A stretch of DNA of 24,000 bases from Romboutsia hominis (GTDB lineage: Bacteria; Bacillota; Clostridia; Peptostreptococcales; Peptostreptococcaceae): contig NZ_LN650648.1 in assembly GCF_900002575.1 (NCBI RefSeq), positions 1,565,565-1,589,564 on the forward strand, in the 5' to 3' direction. The translations under genes were made by a program, and so were the position numbers. Position 1 is the first letter of the stretch. Each line of letters begins with the position of its first letter. The notes under the pieces were generated by a model. That model was given only the letters and a program-made list of their open reading frames with translations. It did not search any database and had not been told where the DNA came from. Shown one piece after another: positions 350 to 23,717 of this stretch.

Positions 350-838
350 TTAAACTTCTACAGGTATTAAATCATATCCCATACTATGTACAAACTTTTT
401 CAGACCTTCTGAGGATAAATTAACCATCTTTGTATTTATATTAGGATGAAAGTTTAAATTTTGTCCATCTAATACATCTTTATCTATACATAAGGTTACT
501 TTTTTCTCTTCATCATTTATTATAGAAAATGGATTAACACTACCTGGTGTAAGTTTTAATGTGTCATATAGCCTTTCTGCTGATGCAAAAGATAATCTAG
601 TACTTCCTAATTGTTCTTTTAATATCTTTAAGTCTGCTTTTTTATCATCTCTAACTACTACTAGATAATATCTATCTCCTTTAGAATTTTTTAAAAATAA
701 ATTTTTACAATGATTTCCCTTAGCTACATCCTTTATAATCTCTAACTGCTCTGCTGTGTATATTGGTTCATGTTCAAATACTTCATACTCAATATTTAAA
801 TCATCTAATATTTTGTATACTTTAGTCTCTATGTTCAT
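350..838 (-). CDS. YbaK/ProX-type aminoacyl-tRNA deacylase (prolyl-tRNA synthetase-associated editing domain protein)
   Basis: 162-aa ORF with AAGGAG RBS 6 nt upstream. Size and pattern (HCKNLFLKN, YYLVVV, KADLK, LSFAS, PGSVNPF, FHPN) match free-standing ProX/YbaK editing-domain proteins of Clostridia. Confidence 0.75.
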   Translation of the reverse strand: MNIETKVYKILDDLNIEYEVFEHEPIYTAEQLEIIKDVAKGNHCKNLFLKNSKGDRYYLVVVRDDKKADLKILKEQLGSTRLSFASAERLYDTLKLTPGSVNPFSIINDEEKKVTLCIDKDVLDGQNLNFHPNINTKMVNLSSEGLKKFVHSMGYDLIPVEV

Positions 839-887: not shown

Positions 888-1976
888 CTAAATATTAGTA
901 ATTTCTTGTAAGTACTTTAATGGATTTCTAGAAAAATCTTGAAAAGAGCCTTCTGTATATATCACATCTTTTCCTAAAAATCTTTTATATCTTTCTTCTT
1001 CCTTTCTCATAGAGTAATCTTTTTTTCCTTCATGATTATTAAATACCATAATCTTTAAAGGAGGTTTTCTTCTACTACCTTGAACTCTTTTTAACATATA
1101 CTTTATATGTATATCAGAATCAGGGAAAGAATATCCACAAAATACAAGTATATCTGCGTTTCGTAAATTCTTTTCTACTTCTCTCCAAACATTAGATATA
1201 TAAACATTTGACATATCTTTAAAGTATGTAGGTGGTATTATTATAGGTATAGTAGTTTCACCACACTCTAAACATTTAGCATCTTCTATATTATATAATA
1301 ATCTCATAACCCCTCCTTCATAAGGAGTTAATGTTAGGCTGTTACATATAGGGCAGTATAGCCAATTTAATGATCCATGTATTTTATATAGCTTTATAGT
1401 TTTTCCAAATGGTTTTCTCCAGCCATCTTTTACATAAAAGTTAGTAAAATCAACTCCATAATCTAGCATTATATGATTTTTTTCTTCACTATATAAGGAT
1501 GCTATGGTATTATCTACATGTATATCATAGTTTGCACTTATAAATGTTGTCTTTTCTATTAAGTTTGCTTTAGATAAATTATCTACTAATAGCTTATGGT
1601 ATTTGTTATTTCTATTTTCACTTTCATGTATTGCCTTTGCCATTAATAAAATTAAATATTGTCTTAAAAATCTTATGCTATCACTTTTGTTACTTAAATT
1701 TTCCATCCCAAAGTTTTTAAAAGCTTCTCCTCTTTTTTCTGCCAAATCAAGAAGTCCTAATACTTCTTCAAAGGTTGGAAAGTTTACTTTATCTATATTA
1801 TCTTTTGTTATATCTATATCAAACATTTGTTTAAAGAATTTATATAGTTCTTTATTCATGTCACTTTCAAAATCATTATCTTTTAAACTTTTAAAGTAAT
1901 CTACAAAAAGGTCACTTTGTATTGGTAAATTTTCAGCAGCAGATGCTCCTGCTCCAAGGAATATACTTATGTTCAT
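888..1976 (-). CDS. SIR2-family protein (SIR2_2-like motif set plus Cys4 zinc ribbon), stand-alone
   Basis: Motifs read in the translation: FLGAGASAAENLP (NAD-binding glycine loop at the extreme N terminus), SANYD, KIHGSLNW (catalytic His), CPIC-x23-CLEC zinc ribbon, IIPPTYFK, FCGYSFPDSD. Preferred start is the second ATG (MNISIF..., complement of 1974-1976), because the GGAGGG in the first codons of the track ORF (888..1988) sits 5 nt upstream as its RBS. Confidence 0.8.
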   Translation of the reverse strand: MNISIFLGAGASAAENLPIQSDLFVDYFKSLKDNDFESDMNKELYKFFKQMFDIDITKDNIDKVNFPTFEEVLGLLDLAEKRGEAFKNFGMENLSNKSDSIRFLRQYLILLMAKAIHESENRNNKYHKLLVDNLSKANLIEKTTFISANYDIHVDNTIASLYSEEKNHIMLDYGVDFTNFYVKDGWRKPFGKTIKLYKIHGSLNWLYCPICNSLTLTPYEGGVMRLLYNIEDAKCLECGETTIPIIIPPTYFKDMSNVYISNVWREVEKNLRNADILVFCGYSFPDSDIHIKYMLKRVQGSRRKPPLKIMVFNNHEGKKDYSMRKEEERYKRFLGKDVIYTEGSFQDFSRNPLKYLQEITNI

Positions 1977-2084
1977 TTTGCCCTCCATTACTAATTTAAA
2001 GTCTTTATTTATTATATTAAATTTTTTAAAATTTATAATTTATCATAAATTTTCTTAATAAATGATCTATGTTTAGTAAACTAT

Positions 2085-2112
2085 GTAAAAAAACCACCAT
2101 TAAGGTGGTTAT
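2085..2112 (-). terminator. Rho-independent terminator after the DUF1905 gene
   Basis: Stem AACCACC (2092-2098) / GGTGGTT (2104-2110), 5-nt loop. The A-run at 2087-2093 becomes the U-tract on the minus-strand transcript. It isolates the SIR2 gene from upstream transcription. Confidence 0.75.
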
Positions 2113-2123
2113 AAGTTTACTAT

Positions 2124-2582
2124 TTATAATTTAGTGTTTGATTTTAATTTTAAAACTGCTTCTGCTATTCTTTTTTTTCTAGTTTCTTGTTTTTTGGCAC
2201 CTGTTATCCATTGATAGTATTTTTTCTTTGAAGAGTAAGGTAGACTTTCATAAAATTTCATAGCTTCTTCATTTTCGTTAATAGCATTTTTAAAATCACC
2301 TGGTAATTCAATTACCCTTTCCTCTTCATCTTTTTCAATTTCAACAAATACTTTATCTAAAGCTTCTTTACCTATTTCTTTTCTTATGGCTTTAGTTATC
2401 CCTATTATATAACATCCTAGGCCCATATTTACTATAGATCCTCTATATTTGACTCCATCAAATTTAGCTTTTACTTTTATCCTTTTTGCATTAAATTCTG
2501 TTTCAACATCAAATGGTATTTCAATGAATGTAGCATCTTTATCTGGTACTTTCTGTATTATTGCTTCAAACTCATAGATCAT
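2124..2582 (-). CDS. DUF1905 / YdeI(OmpD-associated)-family protein
   Basis: ORF track 2124..2600 begins at a GTG. The ATG 18 nt downstream (MIYEFEAIIQKV...) has a GAGAGGAAAAT RBS. The beta-rich N-terminal half (FIEIPFDV, VKAKFDG) and the C-terminal YYQWITGAKKQETRKKRI motif are typical of DUF1905 plus a YdeI C-terminal bacteriocin-protection-like domain. Confidence 0.7.
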   Translation of the reverse strand: MIYEFEAIIQKVPDKDATFIEIPFDVETEFNAKRIKVKAKFDGVKYRGSIVNMGLGCYIIGITKAIRKEIGKEALDKVFVEIEKDEEERVIELPGDFKNAINENEEAMKFYESLPYSSKKKYYQWITGAKKQETRKKRIAEAVLKLKSNTKL

Positions 2583-2606
2583 ATTTTCCTCTCTAGGCAC
2601 AAATCT

Positions 2607-3304: not shown

Positions 3305-4645
3305 TTATTTACCAGCTATTGATAGCTCCTTAACTATAACAGAAGGAGAACCAACATTACTCATAGGGAATTTTAAATCACTTCCAACTACTTCTATATC
3401 TTTTAATAATTCAAAGTAATTTCCTGCAACAGTTATTTGTTCTATAGGATGAGTCTTAACTCCATCTTTTATATAAAATCCTTTAGCAGCTAATGAAAAA
3501 TCTCCACTTATTGAGTTAGCTCCAGAGTGAAGCCCTGCTAAATCAGTTATCATTATTCCCTCATCAACTATCTTCATAAGTTCATCTAAATCTTTATCTC
3601 CAGCTTCAATATATAAGTTACTACACTCAACACCTATATTTGATGCAAATGATGCTTTAAATCCATTACCAGTACTCTTAGTATTTGCTTTATTTGCAGT
3701 TTTTAAGTTGTGAAGTAATGTATTTAATCTACCACTAGATACTAATTCTTTTTTATAAGTTGCCACACCTTCATCATCAAAAGGAGTTGACCCTAATCCA
3801 TTATCTAAAAGTGGGTTATCAACTATAGTTAAAACTTCACTTCCTATAATCTCACCTTCTTTTTCCTTAAGAAGAGATAATCCCCTTTGTGCAGCATCTG
3901 CACTAAATGTATTTGAGAAAGTTTCAAGAAGTGATGCCATAGCATCTTTATATAGTATAGTTTTATATTTTTTAGATTCTATACTACTTCCATTTAATTT
4001 ACTTATAGCTTCTTTAATACCATCTTTAGCTATTTCTTTTGGATTTAATTTATCTATAGAATTAACTATAGAATATCCTATACCATCTTGTTTTTGACCA
4101 TTATCTTCAACAACAGGTACAACATAAGCCATTAATATATTACTTTTATTATTAAGCTCTAATCCATTAGTGTTATATATGCTATGACTAGATGAACTAT
4201 ATGATATTTTACAACCATTTATATTAGCGACCTTATCGTAAGACTTAGCTTCTTTTTCTATATTAAGTACTAAATCTATCATTTTAGCTGGGTCTATGTT
4301 TTCTAAGTCTTCACTGTAAGTTTTAACTTCGCTATAATTCTTATCACCTTTATATATAAATTGAACATCATCACTTTCTACATTTAAAGCACTTTCCTTA
4401 GCATTTTTTATAAGCATATTTAAGGCATCAAAATCTAGTATTTCAGTAAAAGAATATCCCATTTTACCATTTATTAATCCTCTAAAAGAAAGCCCCTTAG
4501 ATTTTTCTAAGTTGTACTTTTCAACTTCACCTTCATAAACACTTATACTTAAGCTTTCTCCTTGAGTGTAGTATATTTCGCATTCACTAAATCCAGCTTC
4601 TAATCCTTTTTTAAGCAACATTTTTCTAAAAGCATTAAATTCCAT
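3305..4645 (-). CDS. pmbA: PmbA/TldE-family metalloprotease partner
   Basis: 446 aa, 2-nt gap after the tldD stop. Typical PmbA length and C-terminal pattern (GxxSGANxISGDFS, GxGSPxxxV). Confidence 0.85.
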   Translation of the reverse strand: MEFNAFRKMLLKKGLEAGFSECEIYYTQGESLSISVYEGEVEKYNLEKSKGLSFRGLINGKMGYSFTEILDFDALNMLIKNAKESALNVESDDVQFIYKGDKNYSEVKTYSEDLENIDPAKMIDLVLNIEKEAKSYDKVANINGCKISYSSSSHSIYNTNGLELNNKSNILMAYVVPVVEDNGQKQDGIGYSIVNSIDKLNPKEIAKDGIKEAISKLNGSSIESKKYKTILYKDAMASLLETFSNTFSADAAQRGLSLLKEKEGEIIGSEVLTIVDNPLLDNGLGSTPFDDEGVATYKKELVSSGRLNTLLHNLKTANKANTKSTGNGFKASFASNIGVECSNLYIEAGDKDLDELMKIVDEGIMITDLAGLHSGANSISGDFSLAAKGFYIKDGVKTHPIEQITVAGNYFELLKDIEVVGSDLKFPMSNVGSPSVIVKELSIAGK

Positions 4646-4647
4646 GA

Positions 4648-6039
4648 CTAATTCTCCTCTCTTCCACCAACTGTTATTTCTTTTACTCTTATCATTGGTT
4701 GACCTACGTTAGTTGGTATACTTCCAGAAGATGAACCACACATACCTTGTGCTTGTTTTAGATTGTTTCCAACCATATCTATATTCATTAAAACCTCGCT
4801 ACCTTTTCCTATTAAACTAGCACCTCTTACAGGTTCTACTATTTCACCATTTTTAACTAAATAACCTTCTGATACTGCAAAGTTAAATTCACCAGTAACA
4901 GGGTTTACTGATCCTCCACCCATTTTTTTTGCATATAATCCATTGTCTATAGACTTTATTATATCTTTAGGATCATCAGTACCATTAGCTATATAAGTAT
5001 TAGTCATTCTTGAAGTCGGTGCAAATTTATAGCTTTGACGTCTACTACTTCCAGTAGCTTTCATATTCATTCTTCTACCATTTAATTTATCTATCATATA
5101 TGACTTTAGTATTCCATTTTCTATTAATACATTCTTTTTAGTAGGATTTCCTTCATCATCAATATTTGCTGAACCCCAGTGATTAGTTAATGTTCCATCA
5201 TCTATTGCAGTTACCTTAGTTGATGCTATTTGCTGACCTAACTTATCTGAAAATACAGAGTTTCCTTTAGCAACAGAAGTAGCTTCTAGTGAATGGCCAC
5301 ATGCCTCATGAAATATTACTCCACCAAAACCATTGTCTATTGCTACTGTCATTTTACCTGCTGGGCAATTTTTAGCATTTAGCATTGTTACTGCTACACG
5401 AGATGCTTCTTTTCCGTAGTATTCTGGGTCTATTTTTTCAAATAACTCAAATCCCATACTAGCACCAGGTCCTTCAAAACCTGTTTGATTTTCAGTTTCA
5501 TTAGATGCTACAGAGTTTATAGATAGTCTTGTTCTTATTCTTCTATCTTCTACATATAGTCCTTCTGTGTTTGCTATTAATACTTGTTGGTCTTTATCTA
5601 AGTATCCAACACTTACTTGAGATATTAAGCTATTGTATGATTTTGCACTTTTATATGCCCTTTTCATAACGTCTATTTTTTTGTTGTATCCTACAGTGTT
5701 TGGATATATTTTTATAGGATTTATATCTGTTAAAACTTTAGTATTATTTAAAGTTATGCTTATATCTTCTTTTAAGCTACCTAATGCTAAAGCTGCTTTA
5801 TAAGCTGTATCAATTAGTGAGTTTAGGCTATTGTCATTAGTGTATGCATATACACTTTTTAATCCTTTAAATATTCTAATTCCTATACCGTAACTTCTTC
5901 CCCCTAGTGCATTTTCTATTTTTTCATCTATTAAACCTATAGAGTTAGTTATAGTGTCTTCTTCAAATATTTCAGCAAAGTCAGCACCTGTTATTAGGCA
6001 CTTTTCTAATACTTTGGTTGCTATTTCTTTAGATAACAT
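4648..6039 (-). CDS. tldD: TldD-family zinc metalloprotease
   Basis: 463 aa. Contains the TldD HExxxH zinc motif as FHEACGHSLEA and the conserved GMCGSSSGS / PTNVGQP C-terminal region. AGGAGG RBS. Confidence 0.88.
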   Translation of the reverse strand: MLSKEIATKVLEKCLITGADFAEIFEEDTITNSIGLIDEKIENALGGRSYGIGIRIFKGLKSVYAYTNDNSLNSLIDTAYKAALALGSLKEDISITLNNTKVLTDINPIKIYPNTVGYNKKIDVMKRAYKSAKSYNSLISQVSVGYLDKDQQVLIANTEGLYVEDRRIRTRLSINSVASNETENQTGFEGPGASMGFELFEKIDPEYYGKEASRVAVTMLNAKNCPAGKMTVAIDNGFGGVIFHEACGHSLEATSVAKGNSVFSDKLGQQIASTKVTAIDDGTLTNHWGSANIDDEGNPTKKNVLIENGILKSYMIDKLNGRRMNMKATGSSRRQSYKFAPTSRMTNTYIANGTDDPKDIIKSIDNGLYAKKMGGGSVNPVTGEFNFAVSEGYLVKNGEIVEPVRGASLIGKGSEVLMNIDMVGNNLKQAQGMCGSSSGSIPTNVGQPMIRVKEITVGGREEN

Positions 6040-6131: not shown

Positions 6132-6950
6132 TTATAAGTTATTAGCAATACTTTTTCTAAGCTCTATAAAATTATTTATTTCTTCTTCATTAGGTCCTAC
6201 TTCACCATGAAAATCTAATCCTTCTTTTCTAACTCCATATTTTCTATATGCATTAAACTTATACTTGCACTTATCTTTAATAATCTTTGAAACTTCTATT
6301 ACAGTTTCTTCATTATTTAAATTAGGAGCTATAACAGTTCTAACTTCGTAAAGTTTTTCTATACTTAAAAGATATTTTAAGTTTTTTAACACTATATCAT
6401 TACTTACTCCTGTTAATTTAATATGCTCATATTCATCAATACTTTTAACATCTAGCATAAATTTATCAGTTAAATCAACAAGTTCTTTATGCTCTGTTAA
6501 GTCTATGCTTCCATTAGTATCTATAAAACAAGTAAGGTTTAATTCATATTTAACTTTTTTAAATAATTTTACTAAAAAATCTGAGTTAAGAGTACACTCA
6601 CCACCACTTACAGTTATCCCTTGAATAAATGGACTTATTTCTTTAATTTCTTCAAAAAGTTTATCTACTGAATAGTCTTTAGTTTTAGGGCTTGATAAAT
6701 TATCACATGCTTTAATGCAATCGTCACATCCTATACATTTTTTATCATCCCAAATCACTTTATTATCTATTTTAAATAATGCATCTACCTTGCAAGTTGA
6801 AATGCACTTACCGCAATTTATACACTTATTTATAGTTTCTGGGTTATGACAATAAGTACATTTAAAATTACACCCTTGAAAAAATATAGCGGTTCTATTT
6901 CCTGGTCCATCTATACAAGAAAAAGGAATAATCTTGTTAACTAGTGCCAT
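6132..6950 (-). CDS. yjjW: YjjW-family glycyl-radical enzyme activase (radical SAM)
   Basis: N terminus IIPFSCIDGPGNRTAIFFQGCNFKCTYCHNPET carries the CxxxCxxC radical-SAM motif of GRE activases. Two extra ferredoxin-type CxxCxxCxxxC motifs follow (CINCGKCISTC, CIGCDDCIKAC). Starts 2 nt after the GRE stop. Confidence 0.8.
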   Translation of the reverse strand: MALVNKIIPFSCIDGPGNRTAIFFQGCNFKCTYCHNPETINKCINCGKCISTCKVDALFKIDNKVIWDDKKCIGCDDCIKACDNLSSPKTKDYSVDKLFEEIKEISPFIQGITVSGGECTLNSDFLVKLFKKVKYELNLTCFIDTNGSIDLTEHKELVDLTDKFMLDVKSIDEYEHIKLTGVSNDIVLKNLKYLLSIEKLYEVRTVIAPNLNNEETVIEVSKIIKDKCKYKFNAYRKYGVRKEGLDFHGEVGPNEEEINNFIELRKSIANNL

Positions 6951-6952
6951 AA

Positions 6953-8446
6953 TTAAGCCCTACGCTTTCTATCAAAAGCTTTAGAACCATGTTTTGCATT
7001 CATACCAAATACTGTTGCATTATTTTTAACTGCATTCCCACTTTCAAGCTGATTAACTTCTGATTTTTTAACTAAATATCCTGTAACACGAACTACATCA
7101 CTACTATCTGAATAAGCTGATATATATCTTATTCCAGTTTTAAATGCTCCATCTATAACATTAACTATAGCTTCTGGATTATCTTTATATGTATCTTCAA
7201 ACACAAATATATCACCTATTCCATTAAAGAAATACTTATGATATGGTGCTGATTGTATAATGTGTTTAAATAATTCAGGTTCTTCTCCTACTGGAATTCT
7301 ACATCCTGGAGATATACCTGTATCTGTATCTATTCCAACTTGAGCGTGCATTAAGTGTTGACCTCCAAAACACCCTGTATACTTTGATTTATGTGAAGTT
7401 ACTATAGAATTAATATTTTCTATTATTCTTAACCCTAGTTCATTAGCTTCTTTTGAATATCCAAATCTGTCCTCTTGATTAGTTGCATTTAATAAATGAT
7501 TTACAGCCTCAGCAAGTCCAACTATACCAAACATTCCTGAGAATAACTCTTTTTTAATAAATCCTTCTAATACAAGGAAGTTTGATTTAAAGAATGCTGC
7601 TTCTTCTACTAAAAATCTTATTCTTTCATCTATATACTCAAGCATCTTTTGTGTAACAAAAGGTATTTTATTTTCTATAAAATCATCAACAGAACTTGAT
7701 TCTTCTGCTAATCTACTAAGAACAAGTCTAACTAGGGTATATCCCCCTCCACCTATTAAAAATCCATTGTAACAACTTGCAAGTGCATATTTTTCAGTTT
7801 TAAAATCAACAACATCCATCTTATGATTTGCAAAACTTGGCTTAGCTGTAGATAATGCTGTTTGTGCACATAGTGCTATAAATTCTTTTGATGTTAAGTC
7901 TTTATCATATTTAACTGTTAAATTTGGTACTGCACATTGTAATTCGCTCATTGCTTTAAGTATAAGTCTACCAGCTTTAGTATCTATTGGACCTATGTTT
8001 GCATGAACAAATGAATCAGTAAGTGTTCTATCTATGTGTTTTAAGTATAATTTTATAGCCTTGTAAGCTTCTTCTTCATCTTTTACAAAAGGCTCTAAAA
8101 GTTCATCTATATTCCCTAAATATACTGGATATGATGTTATTGATGGAACATGCTTGTAAAATATTAATAAGTTATTAGTTGCTTCCCATATATCATTAGG
8201 TACATCAAGTTCTAAAAACTTGCATCCTTCTTTCATTAGTTTTTCATAATCTGGTATAACATATCTTGGTCTGTAAGGAGCATTACCTTCAAACATTGTG
8301 CATATTATATTTTTTTCTAGCAAAGGTTTAGTTTCTTCATCTATATTTAATACATTAAGAGTACTTTCTCCTTGACCTGCTAGCTGTAGTACTTGTTGAT
8401 TATAAGTTAAAGTTTCATTTTTTATAATGTTTAGTGCTTGGTTCAT
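6953..8446 (-). CDS. yjjI: YjjI-family glycine radical enzyme (short GRE, function unknown)
   Basis: 497 aa. The C-terminal VVRVTGYLV matches the glycyl-radical fingerprint RVxG[FWY]. An immediately adjacent dedicated activase, and a size of about 500 aa rather than about 800 aa, fit the YjjI family. Confidence 0.75.
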   Translation of the reverse strand: MNQALNIIKNETLTYNQQVLQLAGQGESTLNVLNIDEETKPLLEKNIICTMFEGNAPYRPRYVIPDYEKLMKEGCKFLELDVPNDIWEATNNLLIFYKHVPSITSYPVYLGNIDELLEPFVKDEEEAYKAIKLYLKHIDRTLTDSFVHANIGPIDTKAGRLILKAMSELQCAVPNLTVKYDKDLTSKEFIALCAQTALSTAKPSFANHKMDVVDFKTEKYALASCYNGFLIGGGGYTLVRLVLSRLAEESSSVDDFIENKIPFVTQKMLEYIDERIRFLVEEAAFFKSNFLVLEGFIKKELFSGMFGIVGLAEAVNHLLNATNQEDRFGYSKEANELGLRIIENINSIVTSHKSKYTGCFGGQHLMHAQVGIDTDTGISPGCRIPVGEEPELFKHIIQSAPYHKYFFNGIGDIFVFEDTYKDNPEAIVNVIDGAFKTGIRYISAYSDSSDVVRVTGYLVKKSEVNQLESGNAVKNNATVFGMNAKHGSKAFDRKRRA

Positions 8447-8473: not shown

Positions 8474-9169
8474 TTATTTACTTTTAATTGAATCTAGTTT
8501 ATTTAATAATTTATAAAACTGTTCTTTATTTATTGATATATATTTTCTATTTACACAAATTAATTTTTCTTCTTTTAATTCTTTTAAGTTTCTATTTATT
8601 GTTCTTATAGAAAATCCTAATACTGACCCTATTTCTTCTCTTGTTTTATATATATATACAACATCTTTTTCTTCACTTTCAAATATATCTATTAAGTAAT
8701 TTATTAGTGAATAGATTGCTGGGTATGCAAGAACTTCTCCTTTATTTAAAGATTGTTCATACATACTTTTTGATACAAAGTGTAATATTTTTAATGTTAA
8801 ATCTTGGTCTAGTTTAATCCATTTTATAAAATCACTTGTAGATATTTTAAGCATTATACAATCTGTTATAGTTTTAAGTGTTGATGAGTAAGCTTGTTTA
8901 TTTGCCATAATTTCCATAACACCTATATATGCTATAGAATCTACATCGGCAAAACTATATACAAATCCATTTTCAAATTCATTTCTAACTTGCATTTTTC
9001 CATCAAGACTTATATATATGTCTTTTATATTTTCGCCTTTTAATGCTACTGTTTTTTCCTTTTTAATTTTTATAATTTCACATTTATTTTTTATATTATT
9101 GGGTATTTTATCTATAAATTCTTTTGTATGTTTATCTTGTGTATAATTAGAGAACACACTATCTTGCAT
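8474..9169 (-). CDS. Crp/Fnr-family transcriptional regulator
   Basis: 231 aa. N-terminal cNMP-binding-like beta-roll and C-terminal HTH (REEIGSVLGFSIRTINRNLKELKEEKLI). No FNR-type N-terminal Cys cluster. 27 nt upstream of yjjI. Confidence 0.8.
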   Translation of the reverse strand: MQDSVFSNYTQDKHTKEFIDKIPNNIKNKCEIIKIKKEKTVALKGENIKDIYISLDGKMQVRNEFENGFVYSFADVDSIAYIGVMEIMANKQAYSSTLKTITDCIMLKISTSDFIKWIKLDQDLTLKILHFVSKSMYEQSLNKGEVLAYPAIYSLINYLIDIFESEEKDVVYIYKTREEIGSVLGFSIRTINRNLKELKEEKLICVNRKYISINKEQFYKLLNKLDSIKSK

Positions 9170-14222: not shown

Positions 14223-16480
14223 ATGACTATGAAAAAATGGAAAGAAATTAAAAAACATGGCTATAATATTATCTTAAATGAAGGTGGTCAAAATATAGCT
14301 TATTCACCTAACTCAGGAGTTAAAATAATTGAAGAAGATGGATATGCTTTTAAAAACTTAAGTAAAAGTGGAAAATTAGAAAAATATGAAGACTGGAGAT
14401 TACCAGTAGAAGAAAGAGCTAAAGATTTAGCATCAAAAATGAGTATAGAGCAAATAGCAGGGCTAATGCTTTATAGTGCACATCAATCTATTTCAACTAA
14501 AGATGACTTTTTCTCTAAGGCATTTGCAGGTACATATAATGGTAAAAAACTAGAGGAATGTGATGCTAAAATAACTGATTTAACTGATCAACAAAAGAAT
14601 TTCTTGTTAAATGATAACTTAAGACATGTATTAATAACCGTAGTAGACGATGCTAAGACTTCTGCTGTGTGGAATAACAATGTACAAGCTTTTGTAGAAA
14701 AAACAGGATTAGGAATACCAGTAAATACAAGTAGTGACCCAAGACATGGTGCAAGTGCAGATACAGAATTTAATGCAGGTGCAGGTGGTGATATTTCAAA
14801 ATGGCCAGAGCCACTAGGTCTTGCTGCTACTTTTGATAGTGAATTAGTTAGAAATTTTGGGCATATCGCAGCTAAAGAATATAGAGCTTTAGGAATAGCT
14901 ACAGCTTTATCTCCACAGGTAGATATAGCAACAGAACCAAGATGGATGAGATTTAATGGTACTCTTGGAGAAGACCCAATTTTATCAAGAGATTTAGGTG
15001 AGGCATATTGTGATGGCTTCCAAACTTCATATGGTGAAAATGAGATAAATGATGGTTGGGGATATGATAGTGTAAATGCAATGGTTAAACATTGGCCAGG
15101 TGGAGGTAGTGGAGAAGGTGGTAGAGATGCTCACTATGCTTATGGTAAGTTTGCTGTATATCCAGGAAATAATTTTGATGACCATCTAATACCTTTTACA
15201 GAAGGTGCCTTTAAATTAAAAGGAAAAACTAAAAAAGCTTCTGCCGTAATGCCATACTACACTATATCTTATAATCAAGATAAGAAAAATGGTGAAAATG
15301 TAGGTAATTCATATAACAAATATATAATAAATGATTTATTAAGAGATGAATATAAATACGATGGAGTTGTATGTACAGACTGGATGATTACTAAAGATAA
15401 TCACGTAGTTGACGCATTCATATCAGGAAAGTGTTGGGGTGTTGAGACTCTTTCAGAAGATGAAAGACATTACAAAGCACTTATGGCTGGTGTTGACCAA
15501 TTTGGAGGAAATAATGAAGTTAAACCAGTACTTAATGCATATGAAATGGGTGTTAAGGAACATGGAGAAGAATTTATGCGTGCTAGATTTGAAAAATCAG
15601 CAGCAAGGTTATTACTTAATATTTTCAGAACAGGATTATTTGAAAATCCATATGTAGATGTAGATAAGTCTCAAGAATTAGTAGGTAACCCTGAATTTAT
15701 GCAAGCTGGATATGATGCACAATTAAAATCATTAATTATGTTAAAAAATAAAAATAACGTACTTCCAATAAATGAAAGAAAAAAGTATATATTCCAAAAA
15801 GAAAAATAAAAGAAAGTAAGGACTGGTTTGGTAATGTAATACCTGCTAGAGAAATTGATCCTGTTAGTAAAGTTATAGTAGAAAAATACTTTAATGTTGT
15901 AGATGATGCAAAAGATGCTGATTTTTCAATAGTATTTATAGAATCTCCTAAAACTGTTGGATATACAAAAGAAGAAGGATACTTACCAATAAGTTTACAA
16001 TATAGACCATACACTGCAGTAAATGCAAGAGAAACAAGTATTGCAGGAGGTGACCCATTAGAATCATCAACTAATAGATCTTACTTAGGAAAAACTAACT
16101 TTGCTAGTAATGAATCAGATTTAGATATAATACTAGAAACAAGAAAAGCTATTGGTAAAAAACCTGTAATAGTATCTTTAAATATGACAAATCCAACTAT
16201 AGTAGGAGAATTTGAGCAATATGTAGATGGAATAATCACAGACTTTGGAGCACAAACACAAGCTATAATGGATATAATTAGTGGAAATGTAAATCCAAGT
16301 GGATTGTTACCATTTAATATGCCTGCTAATATGGAAACTGTAGAGGCGCAATGTGAAGATGTTCCTCATGATATGAAGTGTTATGAAGATGAATTAGGAA
16401 ATGTATATAAGTTTGCATATGGCCTTGATTTTAATGGAGTTATAAATGACAGCAGAGTAGCAAAATATAAAATTAAATAA
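14223..16480 (+). pseudogene. Glycoside hydrolase family 3 (beta-glucosidase/xylosidase-like), split by a -1 frameshift at 15779-15785
   Basis: The N-terminal ORF 14223..15809 carries GH3 motifs (SDPRHG, KHWPGGGSGEGGRDAH, nucleophile motif GVVCTDW). The -1 frame is open from 15776 to the stop at 16478-16480 and reads VYIPKRKIKESKDWFGNVIPAREIDPV...PVIVSLNMTNPTIVGEF...LPFNMP, a GH3 C-terminal domain. The total of about 752 codons is a normal GH3 length. ORF 16184..16480 is only the Met-delimited tail. Confidence 0.85.
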
Positions 16481-16550: not shown

Positions 16551-17858
16551 CTAAATCATTTTCATAAGTTTTGGTATAAATAAACTTATTTCTGGTATAA
16601 ATGTTACTAACATAAGTACAACCAATATACCTACATAGAATGGTAATAAATATTTTATTACATCTTCTAGTTTTGTTTTACCTACTTTACATCCAATAAA
16701 CAGTGTATTTCCAACTGGCGGTGTTATATTACCTATACATAAGTTAAATATAAGCATTATACCAAATTGGACAGAGTCCATTCCAAAGTTTTTAGCTATT
16801 GGTAAAAATATTGGTGTAAATATTAATATTGCTGGAGTTAAGTCCATAAATGTACCAACTATTAATAATATTAAGTTCATTATTAGTAATATTACAACTG
16901 GATTTGAAGATATTCCTAATAATAATTCTGTTATTGCACTTGGAATATTTGTAAATGCCATAACCCAAGACATTATTGATGATACCCCTATTAAGAATAT
17001 TATTATCCCTGTCATTTCAACTGTTTCTAGTAGTATTCTAGGCATATCTTTTACTTTTATAGATTTGTAGAAAAAGAATGATAATATGAAAGAATATACA
17101 ACTGCAACAGCTGCTCCTTCTGTAGCTGTGAATATACCACCTACTATACCACCTATTATTACAAATATTAAGGCTAAACTAGGAAGTGCATCTATAAATA
17201 TTTTCATAGCTTCACCAAAGCTTATCTTATATTTAGTTGAATACTTATACTTTTTCGCAAGTATAAATGCTACTACCATTACTGATAATCCCCATAATAT
17301 TCCTGGTATATATCCAGCCATAAATAGTGCTGCTACTGATGTTCCTCCACTTACTAATGAATATATTATAAGTGAGTTACTTGGAGGAATTAAAAGCCCA
17401 GTTGGTGCAGATGCTATATTAACTGCCGCACTATAGTTTTTATTATAACCTTCTTTTTCTTGAAGTGGAGACATTGTTCCACCGATTGCAGCAGCTGCTG
17501 CAACTGAAGAACCACTTACTGCCCCAAATAGCATGTTTCCTACTACATTTGTATGTGCTAAAGATCCTGGTAATTTACCACTTAATACTTTTGCAAAGTT
17601 TACTAATTTTAATGCGATACCACCGTTGTTCATTATTATCCCTGCTAATACGAAAAATGGTATTGCTAATAATGAAAAACTACTTATTCCCGTAAATATT
17701 CTTTGTGCCCCAGTTAGTACTGCTACATCCCATGATAATGTAGTTAATATTCCAAATATAGATGCTACACCTATAGTTACAGATATTGGTATTCCTAATA
17801 AAAGCAGTATAGGAAATGCAATAGCTATAGCTGAACCTGCTTGAAATGCTAATTCCAT
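16551..17858 (-). CDS. dctM: TRAP transporter large permease subunit (DctM family)
   Basis: 435 aa, polytopic and hydrophobic, typical DctM length. GGGAG RBS. Follows the DctQ and DctP genes. Confidence 0.88.
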   Translation of the reverse strand: MELAFQAGSAIAIAFPILLLLGIPISVTIGVASIFGILTTLSWDVAVLTGAQRIFTGISSFSLLAIPFFVLAGIIMNNGGIALKLVNFAKVLSGKLPGSLAHTNVVGNMLFGAVSGSSVAAAAAIGGTMSPLQEKEGYNKNYSAAVNIASAPTGLLIPPSNSLIIYSLVSGGTSVAALFMAGYIPGILWGLSVMVVAFILAKKYKYSTKYKISFGEAMKIFIDALPSLALIFVIIGGIVGGIFTATEGAAVAVVYSFILSFFFYKSIKVKDMPRILLETVEMTGIIIFLIGVSSIMSWVMAFTNIPSAITELLLGISSNPVVILLIMNLILLIVGTFMDLTPAILIFTPIFLPIAKNFGMDSVQFGIMLIFNLCIGNITPPVGNTLFIGCKVGKTKLEDVIKYLLPFYVGILVVLMLVTFIPEISLFIPKLMKMI

Positions 17859-17895
17859 AATCTTATCTCCCTTGGATTAATTATATTTTTTATTT

Positions 17896-18426
17896 CTACG
17901 CAACCTTTTCATTCTTTCTGTTTGATTTAGTTACCTCTCTGTCTGATTGAGCCATCTCTTGCTTTAAATCAATTAAGTTTAATATATTGTAAATAATCGT
18001 TATTACTCCTGATAATGGTAATGCTAAATATATATATCCCATAGATATTCCTAGTGATGGTGATACTTGCCCCATAGCTAACATACTTATTTGAACTCCA
18101 CCTAATACTAAAACTAATGCTGAGAATACCATTACTACCAATTCTGTCATTACATTTAATATCATTTTTACTTTAGGACTTTTTGATTCAAGTTTTTGTC
18201 TAAAAAACACCATAGTCATATGATCTTTTTTACCAAATACATAAGCTGAACCTAATAAAGCCATCCATACAAATGAATATATTAGTAAATCTTCTGATAC
18301 TGTACTTGGATTATTTAGAACATAACGAGTTATTATTTGCCAAGTACCTAAAACTACCATAAATGCTAGTAGTGTCATACATATGACTTCTATTACTTTG
18401 TTTAACATGTTTCTTAACTTATTCAT
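17896..18426 (-). CDS. dctQ: TRAP transporter small permease subunit (DctQ family)
   Basis: 176 aa, four predicted TM helices, positioned between the DctP and DctM genes. GGGGGA RBS. Confidence 0.85.
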   Translation of the reverse strand: MNKLRNMLNKVIEVICMTLLAFMVVLGTWQIITRYVLNNPSTVSEDLLIYSFVWMALLGSAYVFGKKDHMTMVFFRQKLESKSPKVKMILNVMTELVVMVFSALVLVLGGVQISMLAMGQVSPSLGISMGYIYLALPLSGVITIIYNILNLIDLKQEMAQSDREVTKSNRKNEKVA

Positions 18427-18447
18427 CTTCGTTCCCCCTACTAGTAT

Positions 18448-19455
18448 TTATTTACTTGTTGGTGCTTTTGCTTGTATTTTATCGTATATAACTTTTACTT
18501 CTTTGTCATTTTCAGTCATTTCTCTATGAAGTGGTAAAACTTTTTCTTTAAATGGTTCTGTATCTGGGTAGTAGAATTTAACCCCCATCTTTTTTGATTG
18601 TTCTACTGCTTCACTTACTTTATCTTCCCAAGCATCAACTTGGAATTTATTTATTTCATTAGCCGCATCTAATATTATATTTCTATGTTCTTCACTTAAA
18701 TTATCTAATAACTTAGCATTCATTATTAATATGTCTGGAATCATACCATGTTGGTTATATGAATAATATTTTGCAACTTCTCCATGCTTATTATTAGTAA
18801 GTGCTAATTCATTATTTTCAGCTCCATCTATAACCTTTTGTTGAAGAGCAGTATAAACTTCTCCGAAACTCATTGGTGTAGCTGAACCACCTAATAATTC
18901 CATCATCCTTATGTTTGTTTGACTTTGTTGTACTCTTATTTTCTTCCCTTTTAAATCTTCTGGCTTCATTACAGGCTTATCTGTTGTGTACATATTTCTT
19001 GAACCTGCATCAAACCATGTAAGACCAACAAATCCAGATTCTCTAGTTGATTCATATATATCGCCCATTATATCTTTGTCATTCATTACAGAATGATAAT
19101 GTTCTTTACTATTAAATAAGTATGGAAGGTTGAATACGCTATATGATTTATTAAAACTTTCAAGCAAACTTATACTTCCAACAGCTATATCTATAGCTCC
19201 CGTTTGAGTAAGTTCTACCGACTCACGCTGTCCACCTAATAACTCATTTGGGTATACTTGTATATCTATTTCATTATTAGTTTTATCTTCTACAATTTTT
19301 TCAAACTCTTTTAGTGCTAAGTGTATTGGATGTTCCTCACCTTGGTTGTGAGCAACCCTCATAACCCTTGCTTCATTACCTTTACTTGAACTACATCCAA
19401 CTACCGATAAACTAGCTATAGCTGCAAGTAAAATAACTTTAATCCTTTTATTCAT
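18448..19455 (-). CDS. dctP: TRAP transporter substrate-binding lipoprotein (DctP family), probable hexuronate binding
   Basis: 335 aa. Lipoprotein signal with lipobox LSVVGC. DctP-type pattern (RVAHNQGEEHPIHLALKEF...YPNELLGGQRE). The substrate is inferred only from the operon context. Confidence 0.85.
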   Translation of the reverse strand: MNKRIKVILLAAIASLSVVGCSSSKGNEARVMRVAHNQGEEHPIHLALKEFEKIVEDKTNNEIDIQVYPNELLGGQRESVELTQTGAIDIAVGSISLLESFNKSYSVFNLPYLFNSKEHYHSVMNDKDIMGDIYESTRESGFVGLTWFDAGSRNMYTTDKPVMKPEDLKGKKIRVQQSQTNIRMMELLGGSATPMSFGEVYTALQQKVIDGAENNELALTNNKHGEVAKYYSYNQHGMIPDILIMNAKLLDNLSEEHRNIILDAANEINKFQVDAWEDKVSEAVEQSKKMGVKFYYPDTEPFKEKVLPLHREMTENDKEVKVIYDKIQAKAPTSK

Positions 19456-19474
19456 ATATAAATTCCCCCTAGGA

Positions 19475-20875
19475 TTATTTTATAAAATATTTTTTAGCGT
19501 TGTTGTAACATATATCTTCTACTATGTTGCCTAATATTTCTAAATCATATGGATATTCTCCATTTTCAACTAACTTTCCTAAATAATTGCAAAGAATTCT
19601 TCTAAAATACTCATGTCTTGTAAATGATAAGAAACTTCTTGAATCTGTAAGCATTCCTACAAATTTACTAACTAAACCTAATTGTGAAAGTGCTATAAGC
19701 TGTCTTTCCATTCCATCCTTTTGGTCATTAAACCACCATCCAGAACCAAATTGGATTTTCCCTGCAACTTGTCCACCTTGGAAGTTTCCAATCATAGTTC
19801 CTAATACTTCATTATCTTTTGGATTTAAACAATAAAGAATAGTTTTAGGTAGCTTATCTTCTACATCTAAGCTATCTAATAACCTTGATAAAGAATAAGC
19901 GATTTCCCCATCGTCAATACTATCAAATCCTGCATCCGCTCCAACAGAATTAAACATTCTAGTATTATTATTTCTAAGTGCACCTATATGAAGTTGCATT
20001 ACCATATTTCTTTCACTATACATTTTCCCTAATTCTATTAATGTAAATGTTGTGTATTTTTGAGCATCTTCTATGCTTATTTCTTCTCCCGCTAAAACTT
20101 TAACAAATATGCTTGCAACTTCCTCTTTGTTAGTAGGTTTAAAATAAACTCTTTCTAAACTATGGTCTGTTATATTGCAACCATTGTCTACAAAGTAATT
20201 TAACCTTTTTTCTAATATTTCTATTAATTTATCATAATCTTTAATTTCTGTATCTTCTGTTTTCCCTAATAACTTTATGTAATCACAAAAATCTTTATTT
20301 TGTATCTTTAATGCTCTATCTGGTCTAAATGTAGGTCTTACCTCACACTCAAAACTATCATCAGCATTAATTTCTTTATGATATTTTAAATCATCAACTG
20401 GATCATCTGTAGTTCCTATATAAACTACATTAGATATACTTATTAATTTTCTGGCAGTTAAATTCTTTTTTACTATAGCATTATTGCATTTTTCCCAAAT
20501 GTCTTTTGCAGTCTTTGCACTTAAAGTATCTTCAACATTAAAGTATCTTTTAAGTTCTAGATGTGACCAATGATATATAGGATTTCCTATTAAATAAGGC
20601 ATCATATTTGCAAATTCATAGAATTTTTCAAAATCACTAGCATCACCAGTTATATATTTTTCATCTATTCCAAAACTTCTCATGGCTCTCCACTTATAAT
20701 GATCATGGTATAACCACATTTGAGTTATATTTTCATATTCTTTATCTTCTGCTATTTCAACTGCTGGCAAGTGGCAGTGGTAATCAAATATCGGCATTTT
20801 TGAAGCATTATTATGATATAAGATTTTAGCTATCTCATTTGATAATATAAAATCTTGATCCATAAACTTTTTCAT
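19475..20875 (-). CDS. uxaC: Glucuronate isomerase
   Basis: 466 aa. The N terminus MKKFMDQDFILSNEIAKILYHNNASKMPIFDYHCHLP closely parallels E. coli UxaC (FMTEDFLL...LYH...PIFDYHCHLP). Confidence 0.92.
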   Translation of the reverse strand: MKKFMDQDFILSNEIAKILYHNNASKMPIFDYHCHLPAVEIAEDKEYENITQMWLYHDHYKWRAMRSFGIDEKYITGDASDFEKFYEFANMMPYLIGNPIYHWSHLELKRYFNVEDTLSAKTAKDIWEKCNNAIVKKNLTARKLISISNVVYIGTTDDPVDDLKYHKEINADDSFECEVRPTFRPDRALKIQNKDFCDYIKLLGKTEDTEIKDYDKLIEILEKRLNYFVDNGCNITDHSLERVYFKPTNKEEVASIFVKVLAGEEISIEDAQKYTTFTLIELGKMYSERNMVMQLHIGALRNNNTRMFNSVGADAGFDSIDDGEIAYSLSRLLDSLDVEDKLPKTILYCLNPKDNEVLGTMIGNFQGGQVAGKIQFGSGWWFNDQKDGMERQLIALSQLGLVSKFVGMLTDSRSFLSFTRHEYFRRILCNYLGKLVENGEYPYDLEILGNIVEDICYNNAKKYFIK

Positions 20876-20994
20876 AACTTTCTCCTAAATTAATATTTTT
20901 AATATCGTTTTCTTACTACATTAAATATTAACATGCATCTTAATATTTTCTAATATATTTCATTATTTTACCTTTTATACTATTTTTTATAAAG

Positions 20995-21027
20995 AGTGTT
21001 TCGAAATAAAATTTATTTCAAAACACT
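20995..21027. other. 33-nt near-perfect inverted repeat in the uxuA-uxaC intergenic gap
   Basis: AGTGTTTCGAAATAAA-A-TTTATTTCAAAACACT: 16-nt arms with one mismatch. It has a T-rich tail on the plus strand only. Its function is unknown (RNA hairpin or operator). Confidence 0.5.
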
Positions 21028-21040
21028 ACTTTTATTTTCA

Positions 21041-22087
21041 TTATTTATTCTTATTTATAGCCTCTATTAATCCATTTATATAAACTGCTCCTAAAGCTCT
21101 ATCATATAATCCGTATCCTGGTCTTCCTGTTTCTCCCCATATCATTCTACCGTGATCTGGTCTATATGGTCCTTTAAAGTCATAGTCGCAATATGCTTTA
21201 ACTATTTCATAGAAATCAAGTGATCCACACTCAGATAAATGAGCCACTTCATTAAAGCTACTCTCTCCTGTTATTAATACGTTTCTTAAGTGTGCAAAGT
21301 TTATTCTATTTTTTTCTTTTCCAAAGTATTCAACCATTTTTACTACATCATTAGTACTTGTGCATCCAAGTGATCCTGTACATAAAGTTATACCATTATA
21401 TTCACTATCATAAAGATTTACAAATCTTTCTAGATTTTCAAAATTTGTTATTATTCTTGGAAGTCCAAATATACCCCATGGTGGATCATCTGGATGTATA
21501 GCCATTTTTACGTTGCTTTCTTCAGCTACTGGTATTATTTCTTTTATAAAGTATTCAAGATTTTCCCATAACTTTTCTTCATCTATATCTTTATATTGAT
21601 CTAATAATGCTCCTAGTCCACCTTCTCCATAAGAAGTATCCCATCCTGGAAGTTCTAATTCACCTAGTGCTGGATCCATTTTCTTAACAGTTTCTTCATC
21701 ATATATTAGACAAGTTGAACCATCTTCAAGTTCATAGTTTAGATCTGAACGAGTCCAGTCAAACACTGGCATAAAGTTATAACAAACTGTTTCTATTCCT
21801 GCTTTTCCAAGATTTCTTAACGTTTCTTTGTAGTTTTCTATGTACTTATCTCTAGTAGGTAATCCTAACTTTATATCTTCATGAACTGGTACACTTTCTA
21901 TTACTGAAAGTTTTAGTCCATTGTCTTCTACAGTCTTTTTAAGTTCTAATATTTTGTCAATTGGCCACACTTCTCCAACTGGTATATCATATATCGCTGT
22001 AACTATTCCTTTCATTCCTGGTATTTGTCTGATGTACTCTATTTTTACAGGGTCATCTTGTCCATACCATCTAAACGTCATTTCCAT
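21041..22087 (-). CDS. uxuA: Mannonate dehydratase
   Basis: 348 aa. The N terminus [14 protein letters not shown] matches the UxuA signature (E. coli MEQTWRWYGPNDPV). GGGGGA RBS. Confidence 0.9.
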
Positions 22088-22102
22088 TTACTGTTTCCCC
22101 CA

Positions 22103-23122: not shown

Positions 23123-23717
23123 TTTGTATTTTCTCCACAAATTCCTTAGCTAAGTTTTCTATATCTTCTAAGCTTCCTGCATTAAATAGTGAACTTCCTA
23201 CTCCTACACAAGAAACTCCCATTTCAAACCACTTATCTACATTATCTATACTAACTCCACCAGTTGGCATTATTTCAACATTTGGTATTGGAGCTTTTAT
23301 AGCTTTTACATACTTTGGTCCAAATACATCACCTGGGAATAACTTAACCATTTTATTTCCTTTATCTTGTGCATTCATTATTTCACTTACTGTCATACAT
23401 CCTGGTAAATAAAGTGTATTTAATTGTTTGCATACTTCATTAACTTCTTCACTATATCCTGGACTTACAACATATTTTGCTCCCGCTAATATTGCATCTT
23501 TAGCCATTTCTCTATTTAAAACACTTCCAACACCTAGTATTAGATTTTTGTCATCTCTTAGTTCATTTATTAAATCAACAACATTAGGTATTGAGTATGT
23601 TAATTCTACCGCTCTTATTCCGCCATTTACACAAGCATTTATATATCCTTTAGCTTCTTCATGGTCTTTTGCTCTAATTACTGCTACTATTCCTTCTTTT
23701 TTTATACTTTCTAGCAT
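23106..23717 (-). CDS. kdgA: 2-dehydro-3-deoxyphosphogluconate / 4-hydroxy-2-oxoglutarate aldolase
   Basis: 203 aa. Eda-family pattern (GIRAVELT, GVGSVL, Schiff-base Lys context MVKLFPG, PTGGV). GGGGGA RBS. Confidence 0.88.
   Translation of the reverse strand: MLESIKKEGIVAVIRAKDHEEAKGYINACVNGGIRAVELTYSIPNVVDLINELRDDKNLILGVGSVLNREMAKDAILAGAKYVVSPGYSEEVNEVCKQLNTLYLPGCMTVSEIMNAQDKGNKMVKLFPGDVFGPKYVKAIKAPIPNVEIMPTGGVSIDNVDKWFEMGVSCVGVGSSLFNAGSLEDIENLAKEFVEKIQNVRSK

Follow-up and report, generated by a model that had tools for sequence, protein, structure and literature searches.

The SIR2 superfamily has been split into deacylating sirtuins and immune enzymes that cleave nicotinamide adenine dinucleotide (NAD), the SIRim or SIR2_2 NADases, with the zinc module as the divider (PMC12700824; bioRxiv 10.1101/2024.09.18.613514). 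In the SIR2_2/SIRim subfamily the zinc module and its cysteine tetrad are said to be absent, function has been inferred from that absence, and the proposed order of events places the NADase first and the zinc module later (PMC12700824; 10.1101/2024.09.18.613514). Here, we describe a SIR2 gene of Romboutsia hominis, located in a stretch of 24,000 nucleotides (nt) of contig NZ_LN650648.1 (hereafter 'the window'). To judge by sequence profiles and predicted fold, its 362-residue product belongs to a distinct SIR2-superfamily clade that is nearest to the SIR2_2/SIRim immune NADases and yet keeps a zinc ribbon of four cysteines (Cys4). The protein lies outside every named defence system and represents a hitherto undescribed variant of the SIR2_2 type with a zinc ribbon. 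An earlier account made from the letters of the window (the sequence-only reading) had singled out the same gene.

Classification by profiles and predicted structure

The protein has one Pfam match, SIR2_2 (PF13289), and that match is marginal (27.4 bits against a gathering cut-off of 24.5). It spans residues 148–324 yet covers only 125 profile positions, and therefore includes an insert of about 50 residues. Canonical SIR2 (PF02146) gave no Pfam match at E<=0.01. The NCBIfam models SIR2_antiphage (NF042942; 23.4 bits, cut-off 500) and CobB (PRK00481; 20.8 and 16.3 bits, cut-offs 243 and 221) all failed, although the segment running from the predicted catalytic histidine through the ribbon (residues 199–287) matches the CobB model PRK00481 with an E-value of 1.5e-4. 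PADLOC returned partial matches only, none above 44 bits, to generic SIR2 models and to those of the prokaryotic Argonaute (pAgo) type.

An AlphaFold2 model built from 25 sequences (predicted template modelling score 0.81) was compared with the PDB by Foldseek. Eighty matches were obtained at E<=1e-3, and the best 50 of the 80 are all SIR2-fold proteins or SIR2-containing complexes. The SIR2 subunit of SIR2-HerA ranks at the top (E-values of 2e-12 to 1e-10, template modelling score of about 0.55, 16–19% identity), followed by the SIR2 of SPARSA, slightly before CobB, Hst2, SIRT2 and SIRT5 (about 1e-6 to 1e-5); ThsA ranks among the canonical sirtuin matches. When the family profile was compared with PDB sequences, the best match was PsSIR2 (8w9l), at 1e-5. 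An hhalign comparison of the family with Escherichia coli CobB was not significant (probability 0.2), with the motifs in register. DSSP places the non-ribbon strands of the model at residues 7–11, 147–151, 174–176, 197–202, 247–250, 280–284 and 312–316, which is a list of strands and not of sheet membership. The predicted structure is thus a Rossmann-type SIR2 fold nearest to the immune SIR2s. Because a SIR2_2-type motif grammar, a long helical insert and a canonical sirtuin zinc ribbon are found together, we regard the protein as a mosaic.

Much of the sequence-only reading is borne out by these results. The gene is a stand-alone one of 362 codons with a GGAGGG ribosome-binding site, an upstream terminator and every motif that had been listed, CPIC-x23-CLEC included. 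Its placement on the SIR2_2 side rather than with CobB agrees with the Pfam scores and with the Foldseek ranking, as does the retention of a sirtuin-like Cys4 ribbon with the canonical position of the tetrad described below. The claim that the protein does not match CobB-type enzymes stands for the whole models, which miss their cut-offs, and fails for the His-to-ribbon segment. The SIR2 domain is the only one present, and neither a partner nor a sensor is seen among the window neighbours (YbaK/ProX, DUF1905+OmdA, glyoxalase, TldD/PmbA), with which related loci agree. As for the possibility, raised in the same account, that the combination of zinc ribbon and SIR2_2 traits might turn out to be an already characterised family, no such family was found in the sources searched.

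Catalytic motifs and the zinc ribbon

The motifs of the protein are FLGAGASAAENLP (from residue 6), SANYD, KIHGSLNW, IIPPTYFK and FCGYSFPDSD, and the cysteines of CPIC-x23-CLEC are C208, C211, C235 and C238 (362-residue numbering). Conservation was counted in 120 full-length sequences, namely 119 cluster representatives and the window protein. Catalytic and NAD-binding residues are conserved in 95–100% of these (Table 1), except for the serine of GAGAS, which is kept in 104; where the full cysteine tetrad is missing, six further sequences have CCCD in its place. GAGAS, N149/D151 and H200 are invariant in an alignment of 25 close homologues.

In the alignment of the family profile with PDB sequences, H200 and the four cysteines fall on H116, C124, C127, C148 and C151 of Sir2Tm (1yc5), and the His-to-Cys spacing is identical. 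The AlphaFold2 model has ribbon beta strands at 205–212 and 217–220 (in the 366-residue numbering of the model, which runs 4 ahead of the 362-residue numbering). The ribbon loop LTLTP(K/Y)EKG and the signature HGSLNW-CxxC-x23-CxxC are also kept in the island-borne relatives of other phyla. From this conservation we infer that the enzyme is catalytically competent and cleaves NAD+.

Size and distribution of the family

A collection clustered at 90% identity contains 1449 homologues (best E-value 6e-240), the best 120 of which are nearly all single-domain proteins of about 350–370 residues from Peptostreptococcaceae, the exceptions being a few truncated entries and one protein of 402 residues. 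Among 1.84 billion representatives at 50% identity, 176 clusters match at E<=1e-30 and 1257 at E<=1e-10. Full-length family representatives mostly measure about 340–410 residues, and the longer members show no informative domain fusions, only expansions of the helical insert and unannotated or low-complexity tails. The proteins have a median isoelectric point (pI) of 6.7 and are not basic; binding of nucleic acid by charge was rejected on this ground. A search of BFVD returned distant sirtuins only.

Genomes that represent 185,579 species were scanned and gave 208 confirmed stretches, from which 80 loci were kept for a neighbourhood analysis in which neighbouring open reading frames (ORFs) were clustered and recurrent clusters annotated. 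Outside the Firmicutes clades, members at 40–55% identity occur in Bacteroidota, Ignavibacteria, Planctomycetota, Acidobacteriota, Chloroflexota, Myxococcota, Actinomycetes and others. Clades of a neighbour-joining tree mix phyla, and the family has therefore been transferred horizontally; Peptostreptococcaceae form one clade. The tree pattern would fit horizontal spread followed by one ancient fixation in Peptostreptococcaceae.

Genomic contexts in other phyla and the search for a partner

Outside Firmicutes, about 10 of about 30 independent contexts have defence or mobile neighbours, a count that comes without a formal genome-wide background; the kinds represented are CBASS, TIR, OLD/Gabija-like, Hma-like, toxin-antitoxin and reverse transcriptase. 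The relatives that lie in such islands (Table 1) are 41–55% identical and share the same zinc ribbon.

The SIR2 gene stands alone, without a conserved partner. In a survey of more than 85 loci, any neighbouring family that recurred did so within a single lineage, no Pfam family appears more than twice among 106 non-redundant neighbours within two genes at 38 non-Peptostreptococcaceae loci, and downstream neighbours across loci have no mutual homology. Two kinds of candidate from these contexts were rejected as partners, namely the downstream genes of about 300 residues present in many phyla, which share no homology, and the TIR neighbours, which are unrelated to one another. The latter lie within three genes of SIR2 in four unrelated lineages (L064 8017–10383, L074 7186–8421, L088 4157–5599 and L092 2900–4204), and pairwise BLASTP detects no similarity among them (best E-value 1.1).

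One SIR2 protein (P0112) is found in identical form on three contigs with unrelated upstream genes (L082 9196–11445, L083 6906–9155 and L084 408–2657), followed each time by the same convergent gene of 299 residues, which has no Pfam match and no homologue beside other family members. P0112 and this gene may form a mobile two-gene cassette. A lone DUF87/HerA-type ATPase gene at L083 lies four genes from SIR2, and the other contigs that encode the identical protein lack it.

The locus in Peptostreptococcaceae and Sporomusa

In Peptostreptococcaceae the gene order is mutL-miaA-hfq-ynbB-(M20 peptidase)-SIR2-(occasional ybaK or cyclase insert)-DUF554-290-aa gene-NuoE/F-like. Genes upstream of SIR2 differ by species, those in the window being DUF1905/OmdA, glyoxalase and TldD/PmbA, and the conserved block SIR2-(insert)-DUF554-290-aa gene reaches beyond the left edge of the window. 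It is this block that is conserved, and not the flanking DUF1905 and ProX genes that the sequence-only reading had named.

In 12 related genome pairs with unsaturated synonymous divergence (dS), the ratio of nonsynonymous to synonymous divergence (dN/dS) of SIR2 is 0.02–0.29, and 0.02–0.15 in all pairs except one, and its dS is close to that of the flanking genes in most pairs. These low ratios and the matching dS therefore indicate vertical co-inheritance under purifying selection. The gene is near-universal in Clostridioides difficile, and it is vertically inherited and core-like in Peptostreptococcaceae. Peptostreptococcaceae acquired it in a single event; since then it has been inherited vertically, has kept its chromosomal position and is a constitutive component of the genome. 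Paraclostridium, Peptostreptococcus and Peptacetobacter were not represented among the matches.

No neighbour in these lineages qualifies as a partner. DUF554 adjoins SIR2 in most Peptostreptococcaceae, with a gap of 31–92 nt, and was rejected since five loci lack it, inserts separate the two genes in others, and it does not occur outside Peptostreptococcaceae. The YbaK/ProX-like gene was rejected since it lies between SIR2 and DUF554 in only seven Peptostreptococcaceae loci, and an FtsH-like gene since it is confined to Sporomusa. Downstream of SIR2-DUF554, a protein of about 290 residues is encoded in about 35 Peptostreptococcaceae loci (L001 8631–9488), its sole Pfam match being DUF432, below threshold.

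Sporomusa shows a second stable synteny, with FtsH-like, FBA and RluA genes alongside SIR2. In seven Sporomusa loci (L049, L053, L059, L060, L072, L075 and L076, at about 4430–6000), SIR2 starts between −68 and +68 nt from the end of the FtsH-like gene, which encodes an AAA domain and peptidase M41 (about 496 residues) and is preceded by a gene for a membrane protein of 182 residues. This arrangement may be a lineage-specific operon.

In C. difficile, mutS and mutL are CD630_19770 and CD630_19760, and the SIR2 orthologue is therefore expected a few genes away. A literature search for the clade or for this orthologue, by name and by guessed locus tags, found no paper.

Proposed role and alternatives

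We tentatively favour, at somewhat less than an even chance, a one-protein, NAD-consuming effector of the conflict type that has become fixed in Peptostreptococcaceae. A conflict function is preferred because of the association with islands and the affinity to SIR2_2. The proposal of the sequence-only reading that the gene could be a minimal single-gene NADase or ADP-ribosyltransferase system gains indirect support because the relatives at 41–55% identity sit in defence or mobile islands; on the other side, the curated models for SIR2-HerA, ThsA, DSR and pAgo-SIR2, like those for CobB, were all missed.

In such an effector, the GAGAS loop and the GYS..D strand would hold NAD+, and N149, D151 and H200, as their invariance suggests, would cut the nicotinamide-ribose bond. 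The topology of the model suggests that the helical insert (about residues 20–125) could join the zinc ribbon in a small lobe above the active site. This lobe might bind a macromolecular or small-molecule ligand, acting as trigger or as ADP-ribose acceptor, which would make a separate sensor protein unnecessary. The genomic context of relatives points to conflict with phages or mobile elements as the putative ancestral role of the family, in which the protein may act as a one-protein abortive-infection NADase or directly as an ADP-ribosylating or deacylating effector.

Several observations weigh against this proposal. The zinc module of canonical sirtuins is tied to binding of acyl-lysine or protein substrates and to deacylation, and it is absent from SIRims (PMC12700824; 10.1101/2024.09.18.613514). 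There are no defence genes near SIR2 in the window, and PADLOC found nothing below 1e-30 among 63 non-redundant Peptostreptococcaceae neighbours within three genes, which served as the control set for the islands of other phyla. The same locus recurs across Romboutsia, Terrisporobacter, Intestinibacter, Clostridioides, Metaclostridioides, Asaccharospora and Faecalimicrobium, the dN/dS of SIR2 resembles that of its housekeeping neighbours, and one exact C. difficile sequence is present on at least 1000 contigs. Neither 50,697 phage records nor IMG/VR yielded a copy of the family, and 72,556 plasmids gave only five matches, on megaplasmids and at 25% identity; an origin from phage, plasmid or virus was rejected on these results. 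Identity across phyla is high and uniform (45–55%, ribbon loop included), and such uniform conservation is unusual for sensors of fast-evolving phage factors. Finally, co-location with islands is guilt by association. A defence role is plausible, but how the gene behaves within its own clade speaks against its being a typical defence gene.

Several of these points also speak for the strongest alternative, in which the gene encodes a regulatory sirtuin, domesticated or housekeeping. In Peptostreptococcaceae (and Sporomusa) it would act as an NAD+-dependent lysine deacylase or mono-ADP-ribosyltransferase on a cellular protein, with the ribbon and helical lobe as its substrate cleft, as in CobB-type sirtuins. 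We consider it unlikely but a serious contender. A domesticated, protein-modifying role is favoured because of the zinc ribbon, the uniform conservation and the core synteny. To this can be added the alignment of the ribbon with that of Sir2Tm, the match of residues 199–287 to the CobB model, purifying selection with dS like that of the flanks beside mutL-miaA-hfq-ynbB, the stable Sporomusa synteny and the near absence of the gene from mobile replicons. Against it, PF02146 is unmatched, and where sirtuins have the FGE and GTS motifs for substrate and NAD, this protein has PPTYFK and GYS. The family is also scarce and patchily distributed (208 confirmed stretches in genomes of 185,579 species) and has moved horizontally between phyla, and the nearest relatives beyond it sit in islands of defence or mobile genes. 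Nor does any metabolic or acetyltransferase gene recur among the 106 neighbours of the 38 loci. The sequence-only reading had named a best match to housekeeping deacylases, together with conserved synteny in related genomes, as evidence against its own proposal; synteny over at least seven genera and near-ubiquity in C. difficile were indeed found, but the best profile is SIR2_2 and no sirtuin deacylase.

A bolder form of the conflict hypothesis, which we hold to be doubtful, sees the clade as an evolutionary bridge between SIR2_2/SIRim NADases and canonical deacylating sirtuins, in which the ribbon cleft directly recognises a conserved phage or host macromolecule and ADP-ribosylates or deacylates it, providing one-protein immunity without a sensor. 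If this were true, the zinc ribbon would not be a late invention of deacylases, or would already have been used within the immune branch; substrate recognition would stand in for the sensor, and the gene would do so little harm that it could turn core in C. difficile and its relatives.

Improbable, to our mind, is a non-protein target, with the protein as an NAD+-dependent modifier of nucleic acid (DNA or RNA ends), of a metabolite or of an antibiotic, or as a Thoeris-like effector without SLOG that answers a nucleotide signal from unlinked genes. The conserved ribbon loop would suit an unvarying ligand, basic residues K296, K300, R301 and R306 (366-residue numbering) are conserved after the GYS strand, and TIR genes recur near SIR2 in the four lineages named above. 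Those TIR proteins, however, are mutually dissimilar and come from systems with effectors of their own, none of the 41 Peptostreptococcaceae loci showed a TIR gene, the proteins are not basic, and Pfam finds no SLOG, Macro or other signal-binding domain. Roles outside the set considered here receive what little probability remains. A catalytically dead scaffold or decaying gene is barely credible, with nothing specific in its favour other than the marginal Pfam score, and with conserved catalytic residues and zinc ligands, conservation across phyla, an intact frame and low dN/dS against it.

A clade with SIR2_2 traits and a zinc ribbon, counting at least 176 clusters at 50% identity in many phyla, contradicts the published generalisation about the zinc module and is relevant to the proposal that the NADase came before the zinc module. 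It also offers a minimal, partner-less SIR2 enzyme for studying how NAD+ cleavage is gated. The gene is common in gut Romboutsia, Intestinibacter and Terrisporobacter in addition to C. difficile; if the enzyme depletes NAD or modifies proteins in these organisms, phage therapy, their physiology and studies of sporulation could be affected.

The gene and its surroundings

In the ORF list of the window, the minus-strand ORF 888..1988 encodes 366 residues from its first ATG. The upstream sequence is taATGGAGGGcaaaATGaac, in which GGAGGG (1986–1981) overlaps the in-frame first ATG (1988–1986) and lies 4 nt ahead of a second ATG at 1976, at whose Met all of the 24 aligned homologues begin. Because the placement of the ribosome-binding site and the starts of the homologues both point to ATG 1976, we take the product to have 362 residues (888..1976), with the N terminus MNISIFLGAGAS. 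Homologues, cluster counts and dN/dS (0.02–0.29) establish that the ORF is real and intact and not a chance ORF. At this gene, Romboutsia sp. 1001713B170131_170501_G6 is 98–99.7% identical to the window, and G+C content is even across the region (25–27%).

Terminator-like sites number two in the region against 0.4 expected from shuffles. Given the terminator-like hairpin upstream, the SIR2 gene would have its own promoter region of roughly 100 nt. No terminator was detected in the 50-nt gap between SIR2 and the downstream ybaK-like gene; the latter may be co-transcribed with SIR2, and it is not a conserved partner.

Table 1. Features of the SIR2 region of the window, with gene content around island-borne relatives at other loci
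Feature	Position	Strand	Evidence or remark
SIR2-superfamily coding sequence, stand-alone, 362 residues, stop codon included	888..1976	−	ORF, ribosome-binding site, 24-homologue alignment, Pfam SIR2_2, AlphaFold2 model
Ribosome-binding site GGAGGG, overlapping upstream ATG 1988–1986	1981..1986	−	read from sequence
GAGAS glycine-rich NAD-binding loop, residues 8–12	1941..1955	−	G8, A9, G10 in 112–114/120
NYD motif, N149 and D151, counterpart of sirtuin QNID	1524..1532	−	N 120/120, D 119/120
HGSLNW motif with predicted catalytic His200	1362..1379	−	H 118/120, G 120/120, S 119/120
Cys4 zinc ribbon C208-x2-C211-x23-C235-x2-C238 and LTLTP(K/Y)EKG loop	1263..1355	−	tetrad in 108/120
GYSFPDSD motif, residues 281–288, SIR2_2-type counterpart of sirtuin GTS	1113..1136	−	G, Y, S, D in 117–119/120
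Intrinsic-terminator-like hairpin and T run closing upstream DUF1905/OmdA gene	2085..2110	−	stem 2110–2092: 7 pairs, 4 G-C, then TTTTTT
YbaK/ProX-type aminoacyl-tRNA editing-domain gene, downstream of SIR2	350..838	−	Pfam tRNA_edit, E-value 4e-29
Locus L074			type III CBASS: TRIP13 (6e-123), SAVED-TIR (3e-62)
Locus L064			DUF5677 and TIR protein matching PDC-S73 (1e-132)
Locus L066			OLD/GajA-like gene (2e-51)
Locus L079			HmaC- and HmaB-like genes, Schlafen-AlbA_2, DUF7680
Locus L058			PDC-S26 match (9e-70)
Locus L082			reverse transcriptase, integrase, transposase; SIR2 protein identical to that of L083
Locus L083			DUF87 ATPase and Mrr; SIR2 protein identical to that of L082, surroundings different
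Locus L085			PIN, HigB/HTH, PLD
Locus L088			SEFIR/TIR gene and helicase
Locus L092			TIR_2 gene

Directly upstream of SIR2, the window encodes an OmdA protein with DUF1905 (2124–2600, minus strand), and another, with DUF8412, is encoded about 6 kilobases downstream of the Ignavibacteria member (L090 17331–17894); the two co-occurrences are probably a coincidence. Two ORFs of 98 residues with TTG starts and low-complexity translations (52–348 and 1603–1899, both on the plus strand, the latter antisense to SIR2) are most likely spurious. A search of the window against Rfam matched no RNA element.

Elsewhere in the window, a TldD/PmbA metalloprotease pair (3305–6039, minus strand) lies beside a YjjI-like glycyl-radical enzyme with its radical-SAM activase (6132–8446, minus strand) and a Crp-family regulator (8474–9169, minus strand). 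A GH3 glycosidase appears to be split (14223–16480, plus strand) into an ORF of 528 residues with the N-terminal domain (14223–15809) and one of 98 residues with a C-terminal fragment (16184–16480), with no plus-strand ORF between the two pieces; it must be a pseudogene or else reflect an error in the assembly. A hexuronate-utilisation cluster (16551–23717, minus strand) comprises the TRAP transporter DctM/DctQ/DctP, the glucuronate isomerase UxaC, the mannonate dehydratase UxuA, a PfkB-family kinase and a KDPG aldolase.

Comparison with named systems

Among the multi-component and multi-domain systems, Thoeris ThsA differs in being fused to SLOG or Macro and in having the TIR gene ThsB beside it, whereas the present protein is a single domain, and no TIR gene was seen either in the window or in the set of Peptostreptococcaceae neighbours that was analysed. 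DSR1 and DSR2 are proteins of about 1000 residues with a C-terminal sensor, against 362 residues here. For SIR2-APAZ/short pAgo (SPARSA), the PADLOC model Aga_SIR2 reaches 44 bits over residues 6–210 only, and no Argonaute gene neighbours SIR2 in the loci examined. SirTM is likewise a bacterial enzyme of the sirtuin superfamily, and for both proteins ADP-ribosyl transfer rather than deacylation is plausible, but no locus has a macrodomain, GcvH-L or LplA2 neighbour and there is no sequence match.

Canonical sirtuins (CobB, Sir2Tm) resemble the protein in the ribbon. In both, the Cys4 ribbon directly follows the catalytic histidine, with 8 residues from His to the first Cys, and CxxC-x20-23-CxxC leads the chain back into a P-x-I-V strand; the local fit to the CobB model and the Foldseek matches to CobB, Hst2, SIRT2 and SIRT5 at about 1e-6 belong to the same likeness. 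They differ in that neither PF02146 nor the complete CobB models are matched, in a helical insert of about 130 residues between GAGxS and NYD, in the length of the SIR2 protein, which is about 120 residues greater, and in the exchange of GTS for GYS and of the FGE loop for PPTYFK.

With the SIR2_2/SIRim proteins (ThsA, DSR1/2, pAgo-associated SIR2, FAM118/SIRanc, AbiH), the protein shares a Pfam SIR2_2 score above threshold, partial PADLOC matches to pAgo-SIR2 and other SIR2 models and a family presence in defence islands of several phyla. Their central sheet of seven or more strands may also be present here, to judge by the seven non-ribbon strands listed by DSSP. Unlike them, it has a cysteine tetrad that defines its family and that the defining papers of the subfamily report as absent, and it is without SLOG, Macro, TIR, APAZ or a long sensor region. 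No AbiH profile of Pfam or PADLOC is matched at E<=0.01; AbiH and FAM118 provide precedents for a stand-alone protein of about 350 residues.

The closest named system is SIR2-HerA (Nezha; PDB 8sub, 8uae, 8wld, 8w9l). It differs in that identity to its SIR2 is only 16–19%, in the failure of NF042942, and in its partner, given that a HerA/DUF87 gene adjoins SIR2 neither in the window nor in the clustered loci and no helicase or ATPase family recurs. Profile alignments with its SIR2s end at HGSxNW and restart at GYS, leaving the zinc-ribbon segment unmatched. Nevertheless, SIR2-HerA is the top match by structure and by sequence profile alike, its SIR2 subunit is likewise a single SIR2 domain (about 380–415 residues), and the grammar of GAGxS, NYD, HGSxNW and GYSxxD is common to both.

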